Assembly: GCA_030606485.1 (NCBI GenBank) | Contig: JAUWGH010000001.1 | Coordinates: 60,001 to 92,000 of the forward strand | Reading direction: 5' to 3' | Length of the DNA stretch: 32,000 nucleotides | Source of the DNA: Promethearchaeota archaeon | GTDB lineage: Archaea; Asgardarchaeota; Lokiarchaeia; Sigyniarchaeales; SOKP01 | Notes under the pieces: generated by a model | Told to the model about the DNA's origin: nothing | The model's input: the letters and a program-made list of their open reading frames with translations, nothing else | Database searches by the model: none | Program-made: the position numbers and the translations under genes | Part shown: in pieces, positions 2 through 21,057 of the stretch | Numbering within the stretch: position 1 is the first letter of the stretch | Layout of the letters: each line of letters begins with the position of its first letter

Positions 2-559
2 GGTCTTAATGGAAAAGCTTTATATATTGATACTGAGGGGACATTTAGACCTGAAAGGATAATTCAAATGGCAGATGCTTTGGATTTAGATTATAATAAG
101 GTTTTAAAAAATATAATTTTCGCACGGGCATACAATTCAGACCATCAAATTATGCTTGCTAAGGACGCATCTAATATAATTAAAAAGGAAAATATAAAAT
201 TGATTATTGTGGATTCGTTAATTGGTCATTTTCGAAGTGAATACATTGGAAGAGGAACTCTTGCAGGCCGTCAGCAAACGTTGAATTCTCATTTGCATGA
301 TCTTCTTCGATTAACCGAGATTCATGATGATCTAGCCATAGTCGTTTCGAACCAAGTTCAATCAAAACCCGATGTATTCTATGGAAATCCTCTTAGAGCA
401 ACTGGAGGCAATATTGTTGCTCATGGTTCAACAATAAGGATTTATCTAAGAAAGGGTAAAGGCAATCAACGAGTTGCTAAAATTGTTGATGCCCCTCATT
501 TACCAGAAGCCGAAGCAGTTTTCACCCTCTCCGAAGATGGAATTAGGGATGATATATAA
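2..559 (+). CDS. radA: DNA repair and recombination protein RadA, C-terminal part (5' end outside window)
   Basis: The frame is open from base 2 (GLNGKALYIDTEGTFRPERIIQMA). It has Walker B LIIVDS, FRSEYIGRGTLAGRQQ, NQV and GGNIVAH..T.RIYLRKG motifs of archaeal RadA/Rad51. The Met at 68 is internal. Confidence 0.96.
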   Translation, partial: GLNGKALYIDTEGTFRPERIIQMADALDLDYNKVLKNIIFARAYNSDHQIMLAKDASNIIKKENIKLIIVDSLIGHFRSEYIGRGTLAGRQQTLNSHLHDLLRLTEIHDDLAIVVSNQVQSKPDVFYGNPLRATGGNIVAHGSTIRIYLRKGKGNQRVAKIVDAPHLPEAEAVFTLSEDGIRDDI

Positions 560-8116: not shown

Positions 8117-8920
8117 ATGTCTTTAGAAGAGAATGAAACGGCAGAAACTAGATGGAATGTTAAAACTTTCGCTTTTGCTGGATTGTTTATCACATTAGTA
8201 ATCATTTCTCTCTACTTATTATATCATATGTTTTTTGTAGATGAGACTTTTCTTTATACAATTGTAATCGAATGGTTTGTTAATCCAATTGCTGTGTTAG
8301 GATTTCTTGGAATCTTAATTTTTATCTTAATTATGGGAATTCAAGGTTTATTAGTACCTATACCTTCTGAAATAGTATTAGTAGCTACTGGAATGATCTG
8401 GGGGCTAATAGGAGGAGGTATTATGGGTATTATTGGATCAATGGTAGCAGCACTCTTATGTTTTTATATAAGCCGTAAAGGTGGAAGACCTTTAGCTGAA
8501 AAATTTGTTGGGGGAAAAGCTTTATTCCTAGCTGATAGATTTATTGAAAAATATGGGATGGGAACAATCATAGTGGCAAGATTTCTACCTTTTATAGCAT
8601 TTGATCCAATCAGTTATGCATCCGGGTTGGTCGATTTGGATGTGAAAAAATATTCAATAGGAACATTTATTGGTTCTATTCCAAGAGCTTTCTTCTACTC
8701 ATGGCTTGGAAGTATTTTATTTCCTCCTGGAATGAGTTTTCCAATTAATTTAGAAGATATACCTCTTGCAGAGTTAGAAGCTTATTCAGCTAATTTCAAT
8801 TTTCTTTTAGTAATAATATTGGGTGTCTTAGTAATACTTTTTGGCATTTATTACGTATTCTCAATATATCTAGAAAGAAAAGCTAAGATAAACCGTGAGA
8901 ATTCAAACGCAAAAGAGTGA
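8117..8920 (+). CDS. TVP38/TMEM64 (DedA/VTT domain) membrane protein
   Basis: PIPSEIV, FYISRKGGR, RFLPFIAFDPISYASG and GTFIGSIP motifs. Confidence 0.9.
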   Translation: MSLEENETAETRWNVKTFAFAGLFITLVIISLYLLYHMFFVDETFLYTIVIEWFVNPIAVLGFLGILIFILIMGIQGLLVPIPSEIVLVATGMIWGLIGGGIMGIIGSMVAALLCFYISRKGGRPLAEKFVGGKALFLADRFIEKYGMGTIIVARFLPFIAFDPISYASGLVDLDVKKYSIGTFIGSIPRAFFYSWLGSILFPPGMSFPINLEDIPLAELEAYSANFNFLLVIILGVLVILFGIYYVFSIYLERKAKINRENSNAKE

Positions 8921-9047
8921 AGATAAATGTTAAATTAATGAAATTATATATTATAATAAATCTCAAGAATATTATTAAATAAAATTAAAATTCCCCCTAA
9001 AAATAGATTTCAAATTTCCTCAAGGAAAATACAGTTAGAAATATAGG

Positions 9048-9830
9048 ATGGATGTAAGAAAAAAAAGTAATAAAAGTATTATTGGGCGCTGGAAACTATA
9101 CTGGGAAATTTCAGAAGTCGGTGCGATTGCTCGTCGATATTTTATTATGAACTTTACAGATGGTCTTTTAACAACGCTGGGAATTATAATTGGAATCTAT
9201 GTTTTATATATAAGAGATCAATCTCTATATTCAACAACTAATATCCTTATTTTACCTGGTATTGCTACAGCAATTGCTATGGGGGTTTCTGGCGTCTCTG
9301 GATCTCTCCTTTCTGAAGAAGCTGAAAGAGCAAAAATCAATTACGACTTGAGAAAAGCGATGGCAATATATCAAGAAAAAGATGATGATTCAGAGGATGA
9401 AGCAAGTGATCTGAATAAAAATGATCAAGTAAAAGAAGAAATATTGAAACATATGATTGGTTTAAGCCGAAAAGCGAAAGAAACCTATATTAAAAAACAA
9501 ATTAAGGTTGATTCAGACGAGAAATCTCATAAGAAAGAAAAGGATATTAATGAGAAAGCAGAAGATTTTGCTTCACGTATTTTGGCTATTATTAATGGAC
9601 TTTCTTCATTCTTAGGAGCATTACTAATGTTGACACCATTTTTTGTTAATCCCAATCTAATATATATACAATTCATAATTTCTTTTATCATAATAATTAT
9701 CACTGTATTCTTTTTAGCTCAATATTTAGCCAGACTGTCTAAGGGATCAGTAATTAAATATTTTATTCATTTCTTAGTAGCCATAATATTAACTATTTCT
9801 CTTACATTAACGATCGGTCAATTTACTTAA
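9048..9830 (+). CDS. VIT1/CCC1-family transporter
   Basis: RRYFIMNFTDGLLT and AMGVSG..GSLLSEEAE motifs; charged cytosolic insert followed by three TM helices. Confidence 0.8.
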   Translation: MDVRKKSNKSIIGRWKLYWEISEVGAIARRYFIMNFTDGLLTTLGIIIGIYVLYIRDQSLYSTTNILILPGIATAIAMGVSGVSGSLLSEEAERAKINYDLRKAMAIYQEKDDDSEDEASDLNKNDQVKEEILKHMIGLSRKAKETYIKKQIKVDSDEKSHKKEKDINEKAEDFASRILAIINGLSSFLGALLMLTPFFVNPNLIYIQFIISFIIIIITVFFLAQYLARLSKGSVIKYFIHFLVAIILTISLTLTIGQFT

Positions 9831-9912
9831 ATAAGAAAGTTTTTATTCTCTTTTCAATTAATTCTAATTAATTTTTACGATTAATGAATAAATAACTCAT
9901 AATATTGATTGT

Positions 9913-10707
9913 ATGAAAACTGTAGGAATAGATATTGGGAGTTTATCTACAAAAATTCTATTATTGGAAAATAATGAGATTAAAAATTATAAAATCGCAA
10001 GATCCACTCATAATTTTCAAAAAATTGGTCATCAATTATTTGATCAAATAATGTCTGAAGAAAATTTACATAGGAAAGATGTTTTTATAATGAGCACTGG
10101 TTATGGACGGCATACTATTGATATTGCTGATCAAAAAGTTACTGAAATCACTGCTCATGCGAAGGGTGTATTATACTTTTTTCCAGATGCAACCTCTGTT
10201 ATTGATATTGGGGGCCAAGATTCCAAAGCAATCTTAATATCTTCAAAAACTAGGAGCCCTATTGACTTTCAAATGAATGATAAGTGTGCAGCTGGCACAG
10301 GACGCTTCTTAGAAGTTATGGCAAATGCTTTAGAGGTACCTATAGAAAAATTAGGTGATTTAGCATTAAGATCAAAAAAACCGGAATCTATCTCATCAAC
10401 TTGTACAGTATTCGCGGAGTCAGAAGTAATATCATTATTTGCACAAGGTGCTAAAAAAGAAGATATTGCAGCTGGTATCCACAAATCAATAGGTAGACGA
10501 GTGGCTTCAATGGCGAAAAGAATTGGAGTAAAGCCACAATTAATTTTTTGCGGAGGAGTTGCTAAAAACCCGGCAGTGAAGGTCTTCTTAGAAAAAGAAC
10601 TTGAGTTTAAGATTGAAATACCACAGTTTAATAATAATAACAATATGGATGCACCTCAGTTGACTGGAGCTTTGGGAGCCGCTTTAATTGCTCGAGAAAA
10701 AGTGTAA
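9913..10707 (+). CDS. Acyl-CoA dehydratase activase (HgdC/BadG/BcrD ASKHA ATPase with [4Fe-4S])
   Basis: GIDIGS, TGYGR, EITAHA, IDIGGQDSK, NDKCAAGTGRFLE, CTVFAESEV and GALGAA motifs. No dehydratase/reductase partner genes in the window. Confidence 0.92.
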   Translation: MKTVGIDIGSLSTKILLLENNEIKNYKIARSTHNFQKIGHQLFDQIMSEENLHRKDVFIMSTGYGRHTIDIADQKVTEITAHAKGVLYFFPDATSVIDIGGQDSKAILISSKTRSPIDFQMNDKCAAGTGRFLEVMANALEVPIEKLGDLALRSKKPESISSTCTVFAESEVISLFAQGAKKEDIAAGIHKSIGRRVASMAKRIGVKPQLIFCGGVAKNPAVKVFLEKELEFKIEIPQFNNNNNMDAPQLTGALGAALIAREKV

Positions 10708-10722
10708 AGCAGTAAAAATTTT

Positions 10723-11307
10723 TTATTTCTTGCCAAATAAATCGCTTGGCTTCATTAAATGTGGTTCTTCTTCTTCCTCCTTTTTCTTTTTCTTCTTCTT
10801 TTTCATACTATCTGGGACATACCCATAAATCTCACCCTCTTCTGCCTGTCCTGTCCCAGGAGGAGGTTGTAATTTTGGTCCACTTTGTGGGTAACTCATT
10901 CCAGCTGAGATTTGTTCTGCAACTGGTTGGGAAAAATCAATTGATACTTTTGGACCTTCTGCTGTAATAGTTTTTAATTCTCTCATAACATTCTCTAGAT
11001 TCATTGATTGAACGCTTTTATTCATAGTGTCCATTATTTCTTTTAATCTATGTGAGGTTTCACGTAATCCTTTTGGATTAATACCTGTCAATAAAGCATC
11101 TAGGCTTGTTTCAATAGTTTTATTCAAATCCATTAAAGAGTTTTGAACTTGTTTCCAATGTTCATTCATTTGATTTGCAATTGCCTTAATCATTTTAACT
11201 GTTTCATTCATAAAAGCTACATGACTTTCGTATCTTTCTGAATCCTTAGCACGCAAATCAGATATTATCATGATGAGTTTTCGAAGTTGTTCTTTATTTT
11301 CACTCAT
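10723..11307 (-). CDS. Hypothetical protein: helical N-terminal half, Pro-rich and K/E low-complexity tail
   Basis: 194-aa ORF converging tightly on the activase gene. Confidence 0.75.
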   Translation of the reverse strand: MSENKEQLRKLIMIISDLRAKDSERYESHVAFMNETVKMIKAIANQMNEHWKQVQNSLMDLNKTIETSLDALLTGINPKGLRETSHRLKEIMDTMNKSVQSMNLENVMRELKTITAEGPKVSIDFSQPVAEQISAGMSYPQSGPKLQPPPGTGQAEEGEIYGYVPDSMKKKKKKKKEEEEEPHLMKPSDLFGKK

Positions 11308-16052: not shown

Positions 16053-16310
16053 TTAAATTATTCTAAAGTAATGCAGACCGTAATCTGGACCACATACAAT
16101 CAAAAGAATACCTGCAAAGATAAGAAATTTTGCACCATTCTTATTAATAGTTTTTTTACCTAATAAACAAATTATTCCGAAAACGCCCAGTAATAAACCT
16201 AACATGGAGCCAAATGCACGCACAAAATTCAACAGATCTCCAAATGTATTAGGCAATTCATTAAAAAAAACTTCTAATAAATCAGGAAATTGAAAAATTT
16301 GATAATCCAT
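16053..16310 (-). CDS. Small two-TM hairpin membrane protein (pilin-like architecture)
   Basis: Amphipathic FGDLLNFVRAFG, TM1, basic loop KKTINKNGAK, TM2; AGGGTG RBS. Confidence 0.75.
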   Translation of the reverse strand: MDYQIFQFPDLLEVFFNELPNTFGDLLNFVRAFGSMLGLLLGVFGIICLLGKKTINKNGAKFLIFAGILLIVCGPDYGLHYFRII

Positions 16311-16442
16311 TTTGTTTTTTACACCCTTATCTAAATTTTTTCCTATACAAATTCAAATAATTGATTCTATTACGATTGTAAAAGGAATATATTTAAAGGA
16401 AAAAAGAAATCATTGTTTTTTTTCTGAGTTGATTAGGTAAAT

Positions 16443-16724
16443 TCAACGCCACCTATTTCCTAGGAATGGTAATTCTGGAAATGAACCGAATAATTCTGCG
16501 AGATTTATAGACAGACCTCCCGTAATAGTAAGTATCGTTATCCCAATTATTAAGTAAAGTGCATCTTTAAAGATCCAGCCAACTTTTTTACTAAGAATAG
16601 AAATAACTATATACATAACTCCGATTATTGAAAAAATACTGCCAATTATGGTAATCAACACAGAAAAAAATGAGAAATCCGTAATAACAAATAAATTTAT
16701 TCCTTGGAAAATAATCAAATTCAT
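16443..16724 (-). CDS. Small two-TM hairpin membrane protein (pilin-like architecture)
   Basis: TM1, loop SKKVGWIFKD, TM2; GAGGTGA RBS 7 nt before ATG. Confidence 0.75.
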   Translation of the reverse strand: MNLIIFQGINLFVITDFSFFSVLITIIGSIFSIIGVMYIVISILSKKVGWIFKDALYLIIGITILTITGGLSINLAELFGSFPELPFLGNRWR

Positions 16725-16745
16725 ATGATTTTCACCTCTTATTAC

Positions 16746-17087
16746 TTAATGCCAACCCTTCGGTGTGTCTCTTCCAAAAATTACCCAACTAAATAAATTT
16801 TCGATACCAAATGGAGAACCTAAGTATAAGCCAAAAAGCAAACAAATTAGTCCTAAAATAATTTTACCTGCTCTGCCTTTTTTATTTATTAAACCAGCAA
16901 CCAAATAAACACAACCCATTATGAATAAGACTGCTGGAAAAAAAGAAAAAATTGTCTCAAAAATATCTTTTAAAGGATTAACTAGACTGAGCATAATATT
17001 CTCTTGAAAATAAGTTAAAGCCGCAATACAGCCAATTATAATTAATGTTATGGTTGTAAATGATCCTGATTTTTTCAAGTTAGACAA
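16746..17087 (-). CDS. Small membrane protein with signal-like N-terminus and two-TM hairpin (TrbC/VirB2-like architecture)
   Basis: Hydrophobic leader, amphipathic LVNPLKDIFETIFSFF, TM1, loop NKKGRAGK, TM2; GGAGG RBS inside the upstream gene end; TTG start. Confidence 0.75.
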   Translation of the reverse strand: MSNLKKSGSFTTITLIIIGCIAALTYFQENIMLSLVNPLKDIFETIFSFFPAVLFIMGCVYLVAGLINKKGRAGKIILGLICLLFGLYLGSPFGIENLFSWVIFGRDTPKGWH

Positions 17088-17089
17088 TT

Positions 17090-18592
17090 TTACCTCCCCT
17101 TTTTAACCATTATTGCAATTATTACTAAACCTCCAAAAAATATAAACGTCAATATTATATTCAATTCCTCGATTCCGATATTGATTTCATTGTTCCAGAA
17201 TTCCCTATGAATTGTATATATGATATCATCACTTTTTGGTTGAGTTTCTCCAAAAATATTTCGAAACTTCGCATAGATTGAATATTTTTTTCCATCCTCA
17301 GATCCTTCTAAATATAAATTTTTTGTGGTATTATAGGGTTCCCAAGATGTCCAAACCCCATCTGTTCCGTTCCTAAAGCACATCTCTTGTGCTAACTCTG
17401 CTGTTATATCAAGTGTAATAAACATAGAGTATGTATTATCTGAGCCATTATTTATTTTTATTATCGCGTTGAAAGGTTGAGAATATATAATTTGAATACT
17501 ATCATTTACTGAATATAATATCTCACCGGCTTCATTCCGAAATTTTGCATAAATTGAATAAGTTAATCTGTTTCTTGTACCTGCCAAAAATAATTTTTTA
17601 GTTGTATTATAAGGCTCCCAATTACTCCAATTTTTTGCTGTGAAATTACTAAAACACATTTCTTCCGCGTCTTTAGCAAAAATAGATACATTTACTAAAG
17701 ATGTTAAAGTGTATTGAGCACCATCATTTATCTGAATCTGTGGATTTGTGGGTAAATACCCAATATATAAAATACCATCATTAGCTATATTAGATTCTCC
17801 TATCGAATTACTAAATTTCACACAAATTGTATATTCAGAATTGTTTACTGGGTCTATTAGATATATGTTTTTACTTGTTTTATACGGTTCCCAGGAAGTC
17901 CAAGCACCAGTTCCATATTTAAAACACATTTCATCAGCATCATTTGCGGAAAGTGTTAAATTTACTGATTTAGAATTAGTAATCTCTGCATTATTATTTA
18001 TTTTAATCTTGGGATTTGTAGGTGGAGTCTCATATGTCCAAATCAATCGTGGCACTTTATTCGCAGGACCTTCTCTACTACTTCCTATTAGCCAATTTGC
18101 ATTATTTATAGTAGGATCATGAATTAAAATAGAAAACCCATCTTCACCCTGTATAAAATCCGTAACATCAAAAGTGTAGAAGCCATTTTCTGAAATTTCA
18201 TCCTTTAGTATAAAGGTCTCCCCTATAGGTGCATTAAACCAATTAATCGTATCCTCTTCCCAATCTACGTTTACCGTAAAGATTTGAATATCTATAGGAT
18301 CATATTGAATTTTAAAGTAAATCCTTATCTCAACCTTTATAACATTATCTGGTTTATCTGTGAAAGGAAAATGTAGGAATGCGGTGCGCTTTCCCATTAA
18401 AATCGTAAGATCCCACATTACCCAAAAATCTTCCTCAGAACCATAATTGCCTAAAGGTAGAAGGTCTATTACATAAGAATCCTTATCCGCTATTGTCGAA
18501 ACAGTCGCAATTCCAGCACTACCCTGAACAGGATTAATATTATGATCTATTCCGTATAAAAATGAAAACATTCCAATTAAGAGAATAATCAT
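17090..18592 (-). CDS. Cell-surface protein: signal peptide, DNRLRE-like domain, three Ig-like repeats, C-terminal TM anchor
   Basis: ADKDSYV..NYG..TAFLHF..WEEDTINWFNAP..FDVTD..SSRE..PRL pattern, three ~90-aa repeats and a hydrophobic C-terminus ending in KKGR. The true start may be ATT at 18613. Confidence 0.85.
   Translation of the reverse strand: MIILLIGMFSFLYGIDHNINPVQGSAGIATVSTIADKDSYVIDLLPLGNYGSEEDFWVMWDLTILMGKRTAFLHFPFTDKPDNVIKVEIRIYFKIQYDPIDIQIFTVNVDWEEDTINWFNAPIGETFILKDEISENGFYTFDVTDFIQGEDGFSILIHDPTINNANWLIGSSREGPANKVPRLIWTYETPPTNPKIKINNNAEITNSKSVNLTLSANDADEMCFKYGTGAWTSWEPYKTSKNIYLIDPVNNSEYTICVKFSNSIGESNIANDGILYIGYLPTNPQIQINDGAQYTLTSLVNVSIFAKDAEEMCFSNFTAKNWSNWEPYNTTKKLFLAGTRNRLTYSIYAKFRNEAGEILYSVNDSIQIIYSQPFNAIIKINNGSDNTYSMFITLDITAELAQEMCFRNGTDGVWTSWEPYNTTKNLYLEGSEDGKKYSIYAKFRNIFGETQPKSDDIIYTIHREFWNNEINIGIEELNIILTFIFFGGLVIIAIMVKKGR
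17210..18022 (-). repeat. Three tandem ~90-aa intragenic repeats
   Basis: Consensus NPxIxINxG..T....V.L...A.DA.EMCF......W..WEPY.T.K...L......Y.I..KF.N..GE at residues ~191-280, 281-371 and 372-461. Confidence 0.9.
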
Positions 18593-18608
18593 AAAAATTG
18601 ACTTACTC

Positions 18609-18881
18609 CTAATAATTCACCACCTTTATTTCATTAAAAGTATTAAACGGGATTCTAAAACCAGAAAAATTACTAAAAAATTCAAACATTTTATTCAAAT
18701 TAAATAGACAAACTGCAATTAAAAAGGATAAAAGCGAAATTTTAAGATATCTATTAAAACACTCCTCTTTTCTGTGTAATATTAAACGTATTAAAAAAAC
18801 AAATCCAAAAAATTCCAAGATAAATGAAGTAATTATTAAAATTATCAAGAACCAAACGCTTGTAAAACTTAAAATGTCCAT
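18609..18881 (-). CDS. Small membrane protein with two-TM hairpin
   Basis: Hydrophobic N-terminus, TM, loop HRKEECFNRYLK, TM; first gene of the minus-strand run. Confidence 0.65.
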   Translation of the reverse strand: MDILSFTSVWFLIILIITSFILEFFGFVFLIRLILHRKEECFNRYLKISLLSFLIAVCLFNLNKMFEFFSNFSGFRIPFNTFNEIKVVNY

Positions 18882-18935
18882 TTTTATCTTGTTTATTTAT
18901 TATACTAAATTGACTTAGAACTAAAATAAAATGAG

Positions 18936-18956
18936 GATATATAAAGAAAAAAATGA
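18936..18956. promoter_or_regulatory. TATA-containing motif GATATATAAAG-A7-TGA, copy 1
   Basis: Near-identical copy at 19772-19791; lies about 55 bp upstream of the 18881 start. Confidence 0.35.
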
Positions 18957-18980
18957 GAAAATGGGTGATTATAATACGAT

Positions 18981-19148
18981 ATATTGATAAATAGGAGGAT
19001 AAAGCAAAAGTTTCTAGTGTTTCTCCGCCCATCAACAAATAGGGGGAGGAGGAGGGTAATAATAAGTGTAGAATCAATCTACACCAACCAAAAGACAAAA
19101 ATCCAGTATGGGGGGAGATGCAACTTTTGACTTTATCCTTACCAATAT
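18981..19148. ncRNA. Putative structured non-coding RNA or cis-regulatory element (strand unresolved)
   Basis: Nested inverted repeats: 18981-18990/19139-19148, 18997-19004/19131-19138, 19005-19012/19122-19129 and 19022-19032/19108-19118. Inner hairpin 19066-19072/19078-19084. Locally GC-enriched, with no convincing ORF. Confidence 0.55.
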
Positions 19149-19221
19149 TATTTTAAAACTAACTATAAAAAGATTACCATTCCATTTTTTTGTTTAAAAA
19201 AGTACAATGAGATAATGAAAT

Positions 19222-19497
19222 TTAATAATTATCATTTAATACAGAACCCACTTGTATCGCTAGATAATTTAAGATAACATCGTAATCTTCAGGTGTTATC
19301 TCTTTGGTCTTAAGAACAAATTTTTTTATGCTATTAATACAGGAGAGTTGTGTTCTAATCTTTTCAGATTGGAATTTATTATGAAGAAAGGATTCTTGAT
19401 TCCTAATCTCACATATTAACTTATCTCTTAATTCCTCAAATTGTGGATTAACTGCAATATTTTCAATTCCCATGTTATTAATTCTAAAATTCATCAT
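19222..19497 (-). CDS. Hypothetical soluble helical protein
   Basis: 91-aa ORF; TTTAAATA box about 25 nt upstream of the ATG (leaderless-type promoter position). Confidence 0.6.
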   Translation of the reverse strand: MMNFRINNMGIENIAVNPQFEELRDKLICEIRNQESFLHNKFQSEKIRTQLSCINSIKKFVLKTKEITPEDYDVILNYLAIQVGSVLNDNY

Positions 19498-19624
19498 TAT
19501 AATTTCAGATTAAATTCTAATTATTTAAATAAAAAAGGACTGGAAAGATACTATAAAGAAAGAGATATAACAAAATAACTAAGACTATATTTTCATAGAA
19601 TAAAAAAAAATAAAAAGAATAGAC

Positions 19625-19702
19625 TTATCTTGCAAAGAAATATTCTATAAGGGCTTTTGTGAAACCATCCAGCCACTCATTATTAATCTCGGCCCATTTT
19701 AT
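19625..19702 (-). CDS. Putative 25-aa peptide (xKWAEINNEWLDGFTKALIEYFFAR) with non-canonical ATA start
   Basis: Perfect AGGAGGTGA RBS at 19709-19717, 6 nt before ATA. The only nearby ATG gives a 4-codon ORF. Confidence 0.35.
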   Translation of the reverse strand: MKWAEINNEWLDGFTKALIEYFFAR

Positions 19703-19771
19703 GATTTTTCACCTCCTACAATTTTATATTCAAAATTTGAAAAAATTGTATTGAATCATATTTTTAATAAA

Positions 19772-19791
19772 GATATATAAAGAAAAAATGA
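19772..19791. promoter_or_regulatory. TATA-containing motif GATATATAAAG-A6-TGA, copy 2
   Basis: Near-identical to 18936-18956; lies about 55 bp upstream of the RBS at 19709-19717. Confidence 0.35.
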
Positions 19792-20028
19792 AGACCAAGA
19801 GAGATTAAATTGAATAAAACTCACTTTCTCTCTAAAAAAGCAATTGTTTTATATCAATTGGGACAATATTATTATGAATTATGCAATTTTAGTTTATTTC
19901 CGATATGATTCCACTCTAGTTCTATATTTAAAGAAAGAAAATAATTGTTGAAAGATTTTTTTCTCTTTAAATAGATTTATTTTAAGAAGAGTATAGCAAT
20001 TAATTTTCTATAAAAATCGGAATTTATT

Positions 20029-21057
20029 ATGAGTAAAATCAATCGAGAGAAAAAAAATAATAAATGGAATACATCACAAAATGAAGAAGTAAAAAGATAT
20101 TATTTATTGGGTAATAAATTTCTTGAACAAAGAAATTTCCAAGAAGCAATAATCTATTATAAAAAAGCATTAGAAATTGATCCCCAAGATATCTCAACTC
20201 TTGCTAATTTAGGTCGAGCATATCATCATCAGTCTGTTCTTCAATCATCAACTAAAGATCTGAGTTTATTGGACAATTCTGAAGCTTGTTATCTAGAAGC
20301 AACGAAAATAGATCCCAATTTCTGGTTATCATACTTCACTTTGGGAGTAATTAAAATTGAACGGAAAGAATTTTTAAAAGCACTAATATATCATCTGAAA
20401 TTTCTTACTGTCTATGAAAAAGCGAAAGTAAAAAACTTCAAAATGTATAATCATGCAACCAATTATATTGTAGAATCCATTAAAAAAGGAAAGATTTCTG
20501 TAGAATATTACAAAAAATTATTAAATATCTCAATTTCTAAAGAAATATGGACACTATTGGGATACGGTTTGCTACATAATCAATTATATGAATACTCCGA
20601 AGAATGCTTTCTTAAAGTAATCGAAAAACACCCGGATTATTCTAGTGGATATATTGATTTGGGAAATGTGTATATGGAAATGATTAAAAATATTCCCGAT
20701 TATTGTCCTGATTTGAATAAAATAAAAAAATATCTTAAAAAAGCAGTTGAACTTGACACTAATAATGAAATTGCTTGGAATAATTTGGGAACATATTATA
20801 CATTTGTTGATTACTATGAAAAAGCAAAATTGTGCTATAAAACAGCAATTAAACTCAAAAATGATTACAAAATATCATGGTATAGTCTTGCAAGTATTCT
20901 GGTCAAGAAGGGTTTATATAAAGAAGCAATAAAATATCTAAAAAAGGTCATTCAAATCGACCCAAATTATACTCCTGCTAAAAAAGCGTTAGATCTACTT
21001 AAAAATAATACCAACGAACAATTATCCAAAAAAAGAATAGAACTGAAAATAATATAA
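20029..21057 (+). CDS. Tetratricopeptide-repeat protein
   Basis: Repeated TPR motifs (YYKKALEIDPQD, LANLG, AWNNLG, KVIQIDPNY). Confidence 0.9.
   Translation: MSKINREKKNNKWNTSQNEEVKRYYLLGNKFLEQRNFQEAIIYYKKALEIDPQDISTLANLGRAYHHQSVLQSSTKDLSLLDNSEACYLEATKIDPNFWLSYFTLGVIKIERKEFLKALIYHLKFLTVYEKAKVKNFKMYNHATNYIVESIKKGKISVEYYKKLLNISISKEIWTLLGYGLLHNQLYEYSEECFLKVIEKHPDYSSGYIDLGNVYMEMIKNIPDYCPDLNKIKKYLKKAVELDTNNEIAWNNLGTYYTFVDYYEKAKLCYKTAIKLKNDYKISWYSLASILVKKGLYKEAIKYLKKVIQIDPNYTPAKKALDLLKNNTNEQLSKKRIELKII
20447..21057 (+). repeat. 611-bp direct repeat, copy 1 (3' part of TPR gene)
   Basis: Colinear without indels with 23217-23827; 165 of 202 aa identical by manual count. Confidence 0.92.

Follow-up and report, generated by a model that had tools for sequence, protein, structure and literature searches.

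Small hairpin membrane proteins and an anchored surface protein in a mobile Lokiarchaeal gene cassette, possibly parts of an ATPase-coupled envelope apparatus

What is the role of a row of small hydrophobic proteins encoded around a large surface protein in a Lokiarchaeal genome, and are they pilins? The question is raised by positions 16053-18881 of a 32,000-nucleotide stretch (the window; positions 60,001 to 92,000 of contig JAUWGH010000001.1, assembly GCA_030606485.1) from a Promethearchaeota archaeon, whose 3.75-Mb assembly is rated 100% complete (genome G000, in which the window is C10:60001-92000). The locus holds five co-oriented minus-strand open reading frames (ORFs) of 90, 500, 113, 93 and 85 amino acids, referred to in operon order as p90, p500, p113, p93 and p85. 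A sequence-only reading of the same DNA had recognized these five genes and proposed a major/minor pilin cassette with an adhesin, or a viral structural module. Nothing shows the small proteins to be pilins; the pairing of related genes with an ATPase and a protease in other genomes suggests an undescribed envelope machine.

All five genes are real, four being under purifying selection and p90 weakly constrained. The intergenic gaps measure 16, 2, 21 and 132 nt in operon order, and p500, p113, p93 and p85 each follow a GGAGG/GGTG-type ribosome-binding site. Between the window and the cassette copies of other contigs, the ratio of nonsynonymous to synonymous substitution rates (dN/dS) was 0.24-0.40 for p500, 0.26-0.56 for p113, 0.34-0.38 for p93 and 0.17-0.33 for p85. 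The value for p90, 0.59-1.41, comes from few substitutions. The p90 product is 87% identical to its counterpart in contig L080, where the C-terminus is frameshifted, and 81% identical to that in L081, where the 90-residue ORF is kept; no homologue was found among 40 relatives, and the coding status of p90 is weakly supported. Words of the cassette sequence are present in cold-seep and marine-sediment metagenomes from about ten studies.

Hydropathy analysis and AlphaFold2 (alignments of 62-69 sequences) give each small protein a helix, a short Lys/Arg loop and a second helix. AlphaFold2 models were made for p85 and p113, and both are alpha-hairpins, the fold expected by the sequence-only reading. 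The p85 model, with a predicted local distance difference test (pLDDT) score of 76.7, has helices at residues 11-17, 23-50, 53-73 and 77-81; the p113 model (pLDDT 79.7) has them at 9-26, 28-67, 72-90 and 94-104. The proposed two-helix design thus stands as a helix-basic loop-helix core common to all four small proteins, and fails for p113 as a whole, which carries an additional N-terminal hydrophobic helix (residues 9-26). In p85, an acidic N-terminal lead-in precedes the hairpin and a conserved motif, CGxxxGxxYFxI, lies at the C-terminus. The little identity noted among the four agrees with pairwise BLASTP, in which no comparison was significant. Because of the positive-inside rule, the termini of the hairpins would point outward (Nout-Cout) and the Lys/Arg loop would be cytoplasmic.

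A profile search over 5.8 billion proteins, in which family counts are lower bounds, placed p85 and p113 in two families. The p85 family has at least 400 proteins, typically of 72 residues, with the C-terminal motif CGxxTGxxYFxI; the window's p85 is a cassette-type member of it. At least 124 proteins, typically of 120-123 residues and ending in GYH, make up the p113 family, the C-terminus of which reads G-(W/Y)-H. No member of either family has a Pfam domain, all are annotated as hypothetical, and no paper describing the families was found in the literature. In a sample of the whole phylum, the p85 family is confined essentially to one GTDB family, where 32 of the 45 genomes of at least 80% completeness carry it; it is present in 1 of 4 genomes from a sister family and in none of about 150 from 23 other Asgard families. 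It is usually single-copy, with 2-6 copies in the window's genus. A pan-Asgard family, suggested by the NCBI names Thor-, Hod- and Hermodarchaeota, was rejected on the last of these counts.

In an exhaustive HMMER search, all relatives of p93 were borne on cassettes. It matches the hidden Markov model (HMM) of the p113 family at E values of 1e-6 to 2e-5, and hhalign aligns it with p113 at 78% probability up to the very C-terminus; p93 is probably a diverged, truncated p113-like paralogue that lacks the first helix. The hhalign probabilities between the p85, p113 and p93 families, 58-86%, suggest a common origin but are also compatible with a shared transmembrane (TM) composition.

The evidence for a larger apparatus comes from relatives. 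In contigs L080, L081 and L082, a gene for a 692-residue P-loop ATPase (A692) starts 19-20 bp after p85. A692 matches the PADLOC models HerA (E 4.5e-8) and mad8 (5e-8) and the Pfam models AAA_22 (2e-5), DUF87 (0.008; score 16.7, under the cut-off of 23.2) and HerA_C (0.017). Against the PDB, the profile of its family has HerA structures as best matches (8wiv, 1.9e-5; 4d2i, 5e-4), FtsK reaching just 0.86, and ten of the ten nearest Atlas clusters carry DUF87. These matches place A692 in the HerA/FtsK ATPase superfamily, at superfamily level only. Directly after a p85 paralogue in G001:C27 lies the gene for a homologue of 34% identity (E 1e-106), whose N-terminus is fused to a multi-TM region. 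Other homologues lie beside an M50-like peptidase in L064, L068, L084 and L089. One strand of G016:C70 encodes p85, p113, an 88-residue two-TM protein, the peptidase and the ATPase, and G003:C163 has p113, p85, peptidase and ATPase on the same strand. The peptidase, of 230-400 residues, has HExxH and APSxxD motifs that are invariant in nine sequences, and its Pfam M50 and M50B scores of 19.5 and 17.5 bits are under the cut-off (a further score is 16.2).

The A692 family is patchy: 18 of 41 relatives have it, and a single genome may carry as many as five copies. Many of its members without hairpin genes have fused 5-7-TM domains, or lie beside polytopic proteins of about 1280 residues and very large acidic proteins. 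In L086, L087, L093, L094, L096 and L099, ATPases of the family often have fused 5-7-TM N-domains, and acidic proteins of 700-1900 residues follow the ATPase or the polytopic proteins precede it. In those relatives the arrangement looks like an uncharacterised membrane-tethered HerA system with at most five copies per genome. In L080, positions 8517-11126 encode an 869-residue protein after the ATPase, which combines a GIY-YIG nuclease domain with four or more separate helix-turn-helix (HTH) domains.

The window's own genome differs from these relatives. A genome search of G000 found no A692-family ATPase, and VirB4 (PF03135), AAA_10 (PF12846) and TrbC (PF04956) are absent throughout it; its seven DUF87 matches all lie outside the locality of the cassette. 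For these reasons the window's cassette is, on its gene content, a motor-less copy. The absence of a VirB4/CedB-type ATPase, noted earlier for the window, thereby extends to the whole genome, and the suggestion that the motor must be elsewhere or the cassette orphaned was well placed: the motor adjoins the cassette in three other contigs and G000 has none.

The cassette is, by comparison of contigs, mobile as a unit, because the whole of it recurs with flanks that are always different. Copies with 78-90% protein identity are present in at least five other contigs (L080, L081, L082, L077-L079 and G002:C246; Table 1), so the cluster is conserved together, and the flanks of every copy differ, corresponding to unrelated regions of G000. 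The nucleotide homology shared by the window and L080 stops at position 16053, precisely where the p85 stop codon lies. L081 shares just about 85 nt upstream of p90, including a TTTATATAT box at 18937-18945, about 60 nt 5' of the p90 ATG. From the limits of these shared stretches, the unit consists of a promoter and five genes in at least four contexts; it spans about 3 kb and appears to be specific to one genus. The shared leader presumably acts as the promoter. The L081 copy is flanked by an IS66-like transposase.

Table 1. Features of the cassette region in the window, and gene orders of cassette copies elsewhere (protein lengths in residues)
Feature	Position in window	Strand	Basis or remark
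About 100-nt repeated element, upstream edge of cassette	19007..19109	-	L080 homology starts at 19106
Conserved leader, putative promoter	18882..18966	-	Only upstream stretch common to window, L080 and L081
p90, two-helix membrane ORF, 90 residues, first in operon	18609..18881	-	ORF and hydropathy
p500, anchored surface protein with CBM96/DNRLRE domain	17090..18592	-	ORF, Pfam, NCBIfam
p113, three-helix small membrane protein	16746..17087	-	Hydropathy and AlphaFold2
p93, two-helix protein, lineage-restricted	16443..16724	-	ORF, hydropathy, p113-family HMM
p85, two-helix hairpin protein, last in cassette	16053..16310	-	Hydropathy, AlphaFold2, family motif
Copy in L080 (NCBI assembly contig)			Order 86-500(CBM96)-110-91-85
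Copy in L081 (Logan contig)			Order 90-493-110-93-85
Copy in L082			Order ..110-93-85
Copy in L077-L079 (JGI contigs)			Order ..436-110-93-85
Copy in G002:C246			p93-p85 at contig start

The outward-facing component would be p500. It consists of a signal sequence, a carbohydrate-binding CBM96/DNRLRE domain (residues about 30-184), three repeats of about 90 residues, a C-terminal TM anchor and a KKGR tail. Its N-terminal domain resembles those of CBM96/DNRLRE surface proteins in scoring far over both curated cut-offs (Pfam PF24517, 65.4 bits against 26; NCBIfam NF033679, 53.1 against 34). It differs from them in the fusion to three genus-specific repeats and an anchor, and in the position of its gene within an operon of hairpin membrane proteins. 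The repeats also occur in many large surface proteins of the same genus, and no full-length orthologue of p500 was found in 40 sampled relatives. In-frame codons 5' of its ATG (IIRSKSIF; window 18593-18613) are conserved in L080, and in L081 the ATG is replaced by an Ile codon; translation therefore probably begins upstream at ATT 18613, an ATT/ATA start just past the p90 stop, which would give the signal peptide its basic n-region.

The genes for p113 and p85 have counterparts on the chromosome throughout the family. A search of 40 relatives located p113 homologues in the same genus, and every one of them has a p85 homologue immediately after it. In other genera, family HMMs place the two genes next to each other, mostly tail-to-tail, and the adjacency recurs in independently fetched NCBI assemblies and in nearly every relative examined. 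The surroundings of this canonical pair are conserved in most genomes, with local rearrangement, and comprise genes for the M50-like membrane peptidase with its HExxH and APSxxD motifs, a 115-residue TM protein, a 236-255-residue ATPase that is a RAD57/RadA/RadB-type paralogue, a Zn-finger protein, a 395-430-residue RadA paralogue with HhH domains at both ends (Pfam Rad51, 2.5e-73), a C-terminally anchored protein of 333-352 residues with a signal sequence (no match in Pfam or PADLOC), a topoisomerase-type Zn-ribbon protein, and the pair itself followed by FEN1. In G000 this neighbourhood lies at C5:195300-202010 (L105) without the pair, which its sisters G001 and G002 have there; the window's p113 is hence the sole p113-family gene of G000.

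Kinship of the 236-255-residue ATPase with A692, as a miniature HerA, was considered and rejected: the two share only the P-loop, and the profile of the smaller protein matches RAD57, RadA and RadB (E 2e-13 to 3e-5). A provirus is likewise an unlikely identity for the neighbourhood, which is syntenic across genera and holds FEN1 and RadA paralogues. It forms an unusual membrane-linked recombination gene cluster (G000:C5; L053, L063-L076). G000 has at least four RadA-type genes, and window positions 2-559 hold the end of another RadA paralogue, 42% identical to the RadA-like protein of C5.

On this evidence a tentative preference, close to an even chance and still short of it, is given to the reading that the hairpins and p500 are the membrane subunits and adhesin of an ATPase-coupled envelope apparatus that works in a Ced-like manner, membership of the Ced group being not demonstrable. 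In such an apparatus, p113, p93 and p85 may co-assemble into a membrane-embedded platform or channel whose basic cytoplasmic loops face a docked motor. The full version would couple these hairpins to the HerA/FtsK-type ATPase and the intramembrane protease, and p500 would serve as an outward-facing glycan-binding adhesin or specificity component. In G000 the cassette might act as a passive adhesion or contact module, or might borrow an M50-like peptidase (pep249) and a 1293-residue membrane protein encoded in the same genomic island. The logic would resemble that of Ced and type IV secretion systems (T4SS), an analogy and not demonstrated common descent. The substrate could be DNA or the subunits themselves. 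The great majority of HerA/FtsK ATPases translocate nucleic acids, and since the canonical pair also lies among recombination genes, DNA movement would be the most natural guess.

Several observations weigh against this reading. The absence of an A692-family ATPase from G000 is one, and the cassette is kept under selection there despite it, from which it follows that the small proteins have some ATPase-independent function. At thirteen of the A692-family loci examined, no gene for p85, p113 or the peptidase lies within 8 kb, so the link between ATPase and hairpins is not obligatory. A HerA-like ATPase does not usually accompany the canonical p85/p113 pair, the ATPase of about 240 residues in that neighbourhood being a RadA/Rad57-like paralogue. 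The hairpin is a generic form of membrane protein, and no specific match came out of the structure searches. Finally, no RNA-seq run containing the locus was present among the sequencing runs listed.

A true pilin cassette, in line with the sequence-only reading, would make p113, p93 and p85 major and minor VirB2/CedA1-like pilins, extracted by an ATPase into a lipid-bound filament with p500 as tip or decoration, for DNA transfer or contact of the Ced/Ted type. The Ced/Ted systems of Sulfolobales and Thermoproteales (CedA, CedA1, CedA2, CedB; TedA, TedB, TedC) are defined by a pilin, a VirB6-like channel and a VirB4-like ATPase, and Ted loci lie near rad50 and herA (PMC9905601). The present genes resemble them in several respects: architecture, predicted Nout-Cout topology and basic loop match conjugative pilins (PMC9905601); two-TM small proteins are combined with a HerA/VirB4-superfamily ATPase, here in the relatives' copies only; homology among the small proteins escapes BLAST in both; and both are positionally linked to homologous-recombination genes, which for the canonical pair are a RadA paralogue, a Rad57-like ATPase and FEN1. 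The hydrophobic hairpin and its short basic loop are found in the VirB2/TrbC/TraA proteins (PF04956 and relatives) as well, and p113 adds an N-terminal hydrophobic lead-in.

Direct comparison gave no positive evidence of membership in a pilin or capsid family. The small proteins had no informative match in Pfam, NCBIfam or PHROGs, with none to TrbC at E<=0.1 and PHROG matches either absent or of unknown function; nor did they match any unrelated known family. Foldseek searches of the PDB with the p85 and p113 models returned nothing at E<=0.001, and the top 50 contained neither pilins nor capsid proteins, the leading matches being generic hairpins such as NuoK, Vtc1, MrpG and subunit c (E about 1-8). 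Family profiles run against all PDB sequences gave no pilin and nothing relevant at E<=10. The PDB copy extended to April 2026 and presumably included the CedA1 and TedC pili published in 2023. These negatives are weak in themselves, short hairpins carrying little signal, and two hydrophobic helices with a short basic loop are at once VirB2-like and spindle-virus-like, a generic design that does not discriminate.

Further differences count against the pilin proposal. The cassette has no VirB6/CedA-like polytopic channel gene, no coupling protein accompanies it, the relatives' ATPase profile is closer to HerA than to VirB4, and the window's genome lacks any motor. The gene sets described here include an M50-like intramembrane protease and a CBM96 adhesin, which set them apart from Ced/Ted. 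The p113 region past the first helix (FPxFGxNLRY) shows no obvious signal-peptidase site in the alignment. With no sequence or fold match to VirB2, TrbC, TraA, CedA1 or TedC, the pilin cassette is regarded as improbable.

A plainer account, also considered unlikely, takes p500 as an ordinary glycan-binding envelope protein with the small proteins as its anchors or chaperones, the ATPase of the relatives being an incidental neighbour. It accommodates the selected cassette of G000 and the many A692 loci without hairpin genes, and the canonical pair too adjoins a protein with signal sequence and C-terminal anchor, that of 333-352 residues. Incidental adjacency, however, is hard to reconcile with two ATPase versions that are just 34% identical and each lie directly after a p85-family gene, or with same-strand operons of p85, p113, peptidase and ATPase in different genera.

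The genomic setting of the window's cassette raises the further idea of anti-virus defence or surface sensing, in which p500 would be a receptor or decoy, the hairpins would disrupt the membrane or signal, and full versions would add the HerA-like ATPase and a nuclease. In G001 and G002 an FGGY kinase gene is directly followed by a gene for a 276-residue hydrolase. In G000 the hydrolase gene (276-277 residues) is at C10:112458, and since the two are adjacent in the sisters, G000 carries an island of about 36.3 kb between them (C10 about 75920-112215; window 15920 onward). The cassette forms the left edge; pep249 and the 1293-residue four-TM protein, which has no match in Pfam or PADLOC, form the right edge about 30 kb away. 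The p85 end adjoins the FGGY gene in G003 also, which puts the island or cassette at the same site in that genome. The remaining island genes are of a defence-like kind, with NACHT, DUF4065-nuclease, PIN, restriction-endonuclease (REase) and Rad50-like genes, NOV_C, two ParB_N proteins, DUF3800 and DUF488; no integrase, conjugation gene or att repeats were seen in it.

This position at the edge of a defence-rich island missing from G001 and G002, the varied contexts of the cassette elsewhere, the A692 matches to PADLOC HerA (about 1e-7) and mad8, the patchy, multi-copy occurrence of the family (five copies in one genome) and the nuclease-domain protein with multiple HTH domains after the L080 ATPase recall HerA defence systems such as Sir2-HerA and DUF4297-HerA. 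The partners differ, being membrane hairpins, a membrane protease and an adhesin in place of Sir2 or DUF4297, and no cassette protein matched a PADLOC model. The GIY-YIG neighbour is present in one contig only, and in about 70% of the family's genomes the parent pair has syntenic, housekeeping-like surroundings, which is unusual for defence genes. A role in defence is accordingly given a low probability.

Least likely is the viral module of the sequence-only reading, in which the hairpins would be capsid proteins of a spindle-shaped virus (His1, fuselloviruses, Asgard wyrdviruses) and p500 a terminal receptor-binding adhesin, left by a provirus or domesticated: the cassette is mobile, with a transposase beside one copy, and in wyrdviruses of Asgard archaea an adhesin and an ATPase accompany one or two capsid proteins of about 80 residues, which have two hydrophobic segments (bioRxiv 10.1101/2021.07.29.453957), a gene set similar to the present one, where the ATPase is found in the fuller versions; but no spindle-virus coat was matched, tblastn against GenBank viruses (50,697 records) found nothing for p85, p113 or the 692-residue ATPase, IMG/VR held no relative of p85 (searched as a single protein) or of the ATPase alignment, Foldseek of p85 against BFVD gave none at E<=0.001 and just generic hairpins, the ATPase is HerA-like where the viruses have the pI-like AAA+ type, no integrase or replication module is present, and the unit is just 3 kb. 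A cellular membrane complex fits better than a virus coat, because p113 and p85 are paralogues of a chromosomal pair that is syntenic across the host family.

At the upstream edge of the cassette, the repeated element contains a GTGTAGA...TCTACAC hairpin (7-8 bp), a CCCTCCTCCTCCCCC anti-Shine-Dalgarno-like tract and a closing stem. Five copies are present in G000, among them C3:55713-55830, C10:236740-236813, C3:26063-26122 and C1:6113-6169, and there are many in G001-G004. The L081 copy lacks the element, so the cassette can exist without it. No Rfam family matched the element, which may be an unrecognised small RNA or a repeat like a miniature inverted-repeat transposable element (MITE). Window positions 19007-21057, which hold the element, a TPR342 gene and a 91-residue ORF, are 90% identical to G000:C3:55713-57761, where there is no cassette. 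Elsewhere in G000, an intact solo second copy of p85 (C2:385553-385810) has 85% amino acid identity, and C1:447048-447209 holds a decayed piece of p113 interrupted by stop codons; the two look like remnants of earlier cassette insertions.

The preferred reading, an ATPase-coupled envelope apparatus, has a bolder extension that is unlikely as it stands: one Loki-type family may have its own apparatus of p85/p113, protease and membrane-tethered HerA-type translocase, tied to RadA paralogues and FEN1, that transfers DNA from cell to cell or through the envelope, an independently evolved counterpart of Ced or conjugation, with the window's cassette as a mobile, adhesin-bearing specificity module. 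Asgard biology is thought to depend on intimate cell-cell association. The analysis defines two lineage-specific, unannotated families of small membrane proteins encoded as a conserved pair, links them, through the operons of relatives, to an intramembrane protease and a HerA-type ATPase, and describes an adhesin-bearing version that changes its genomic position. An apparatus that moved DNA or built a surface structure would count as a new envelope machine, in the lineage with the closest bearing on eukaryogenesis; otherwise, several hundred hypothetical proteins gain names and a context.

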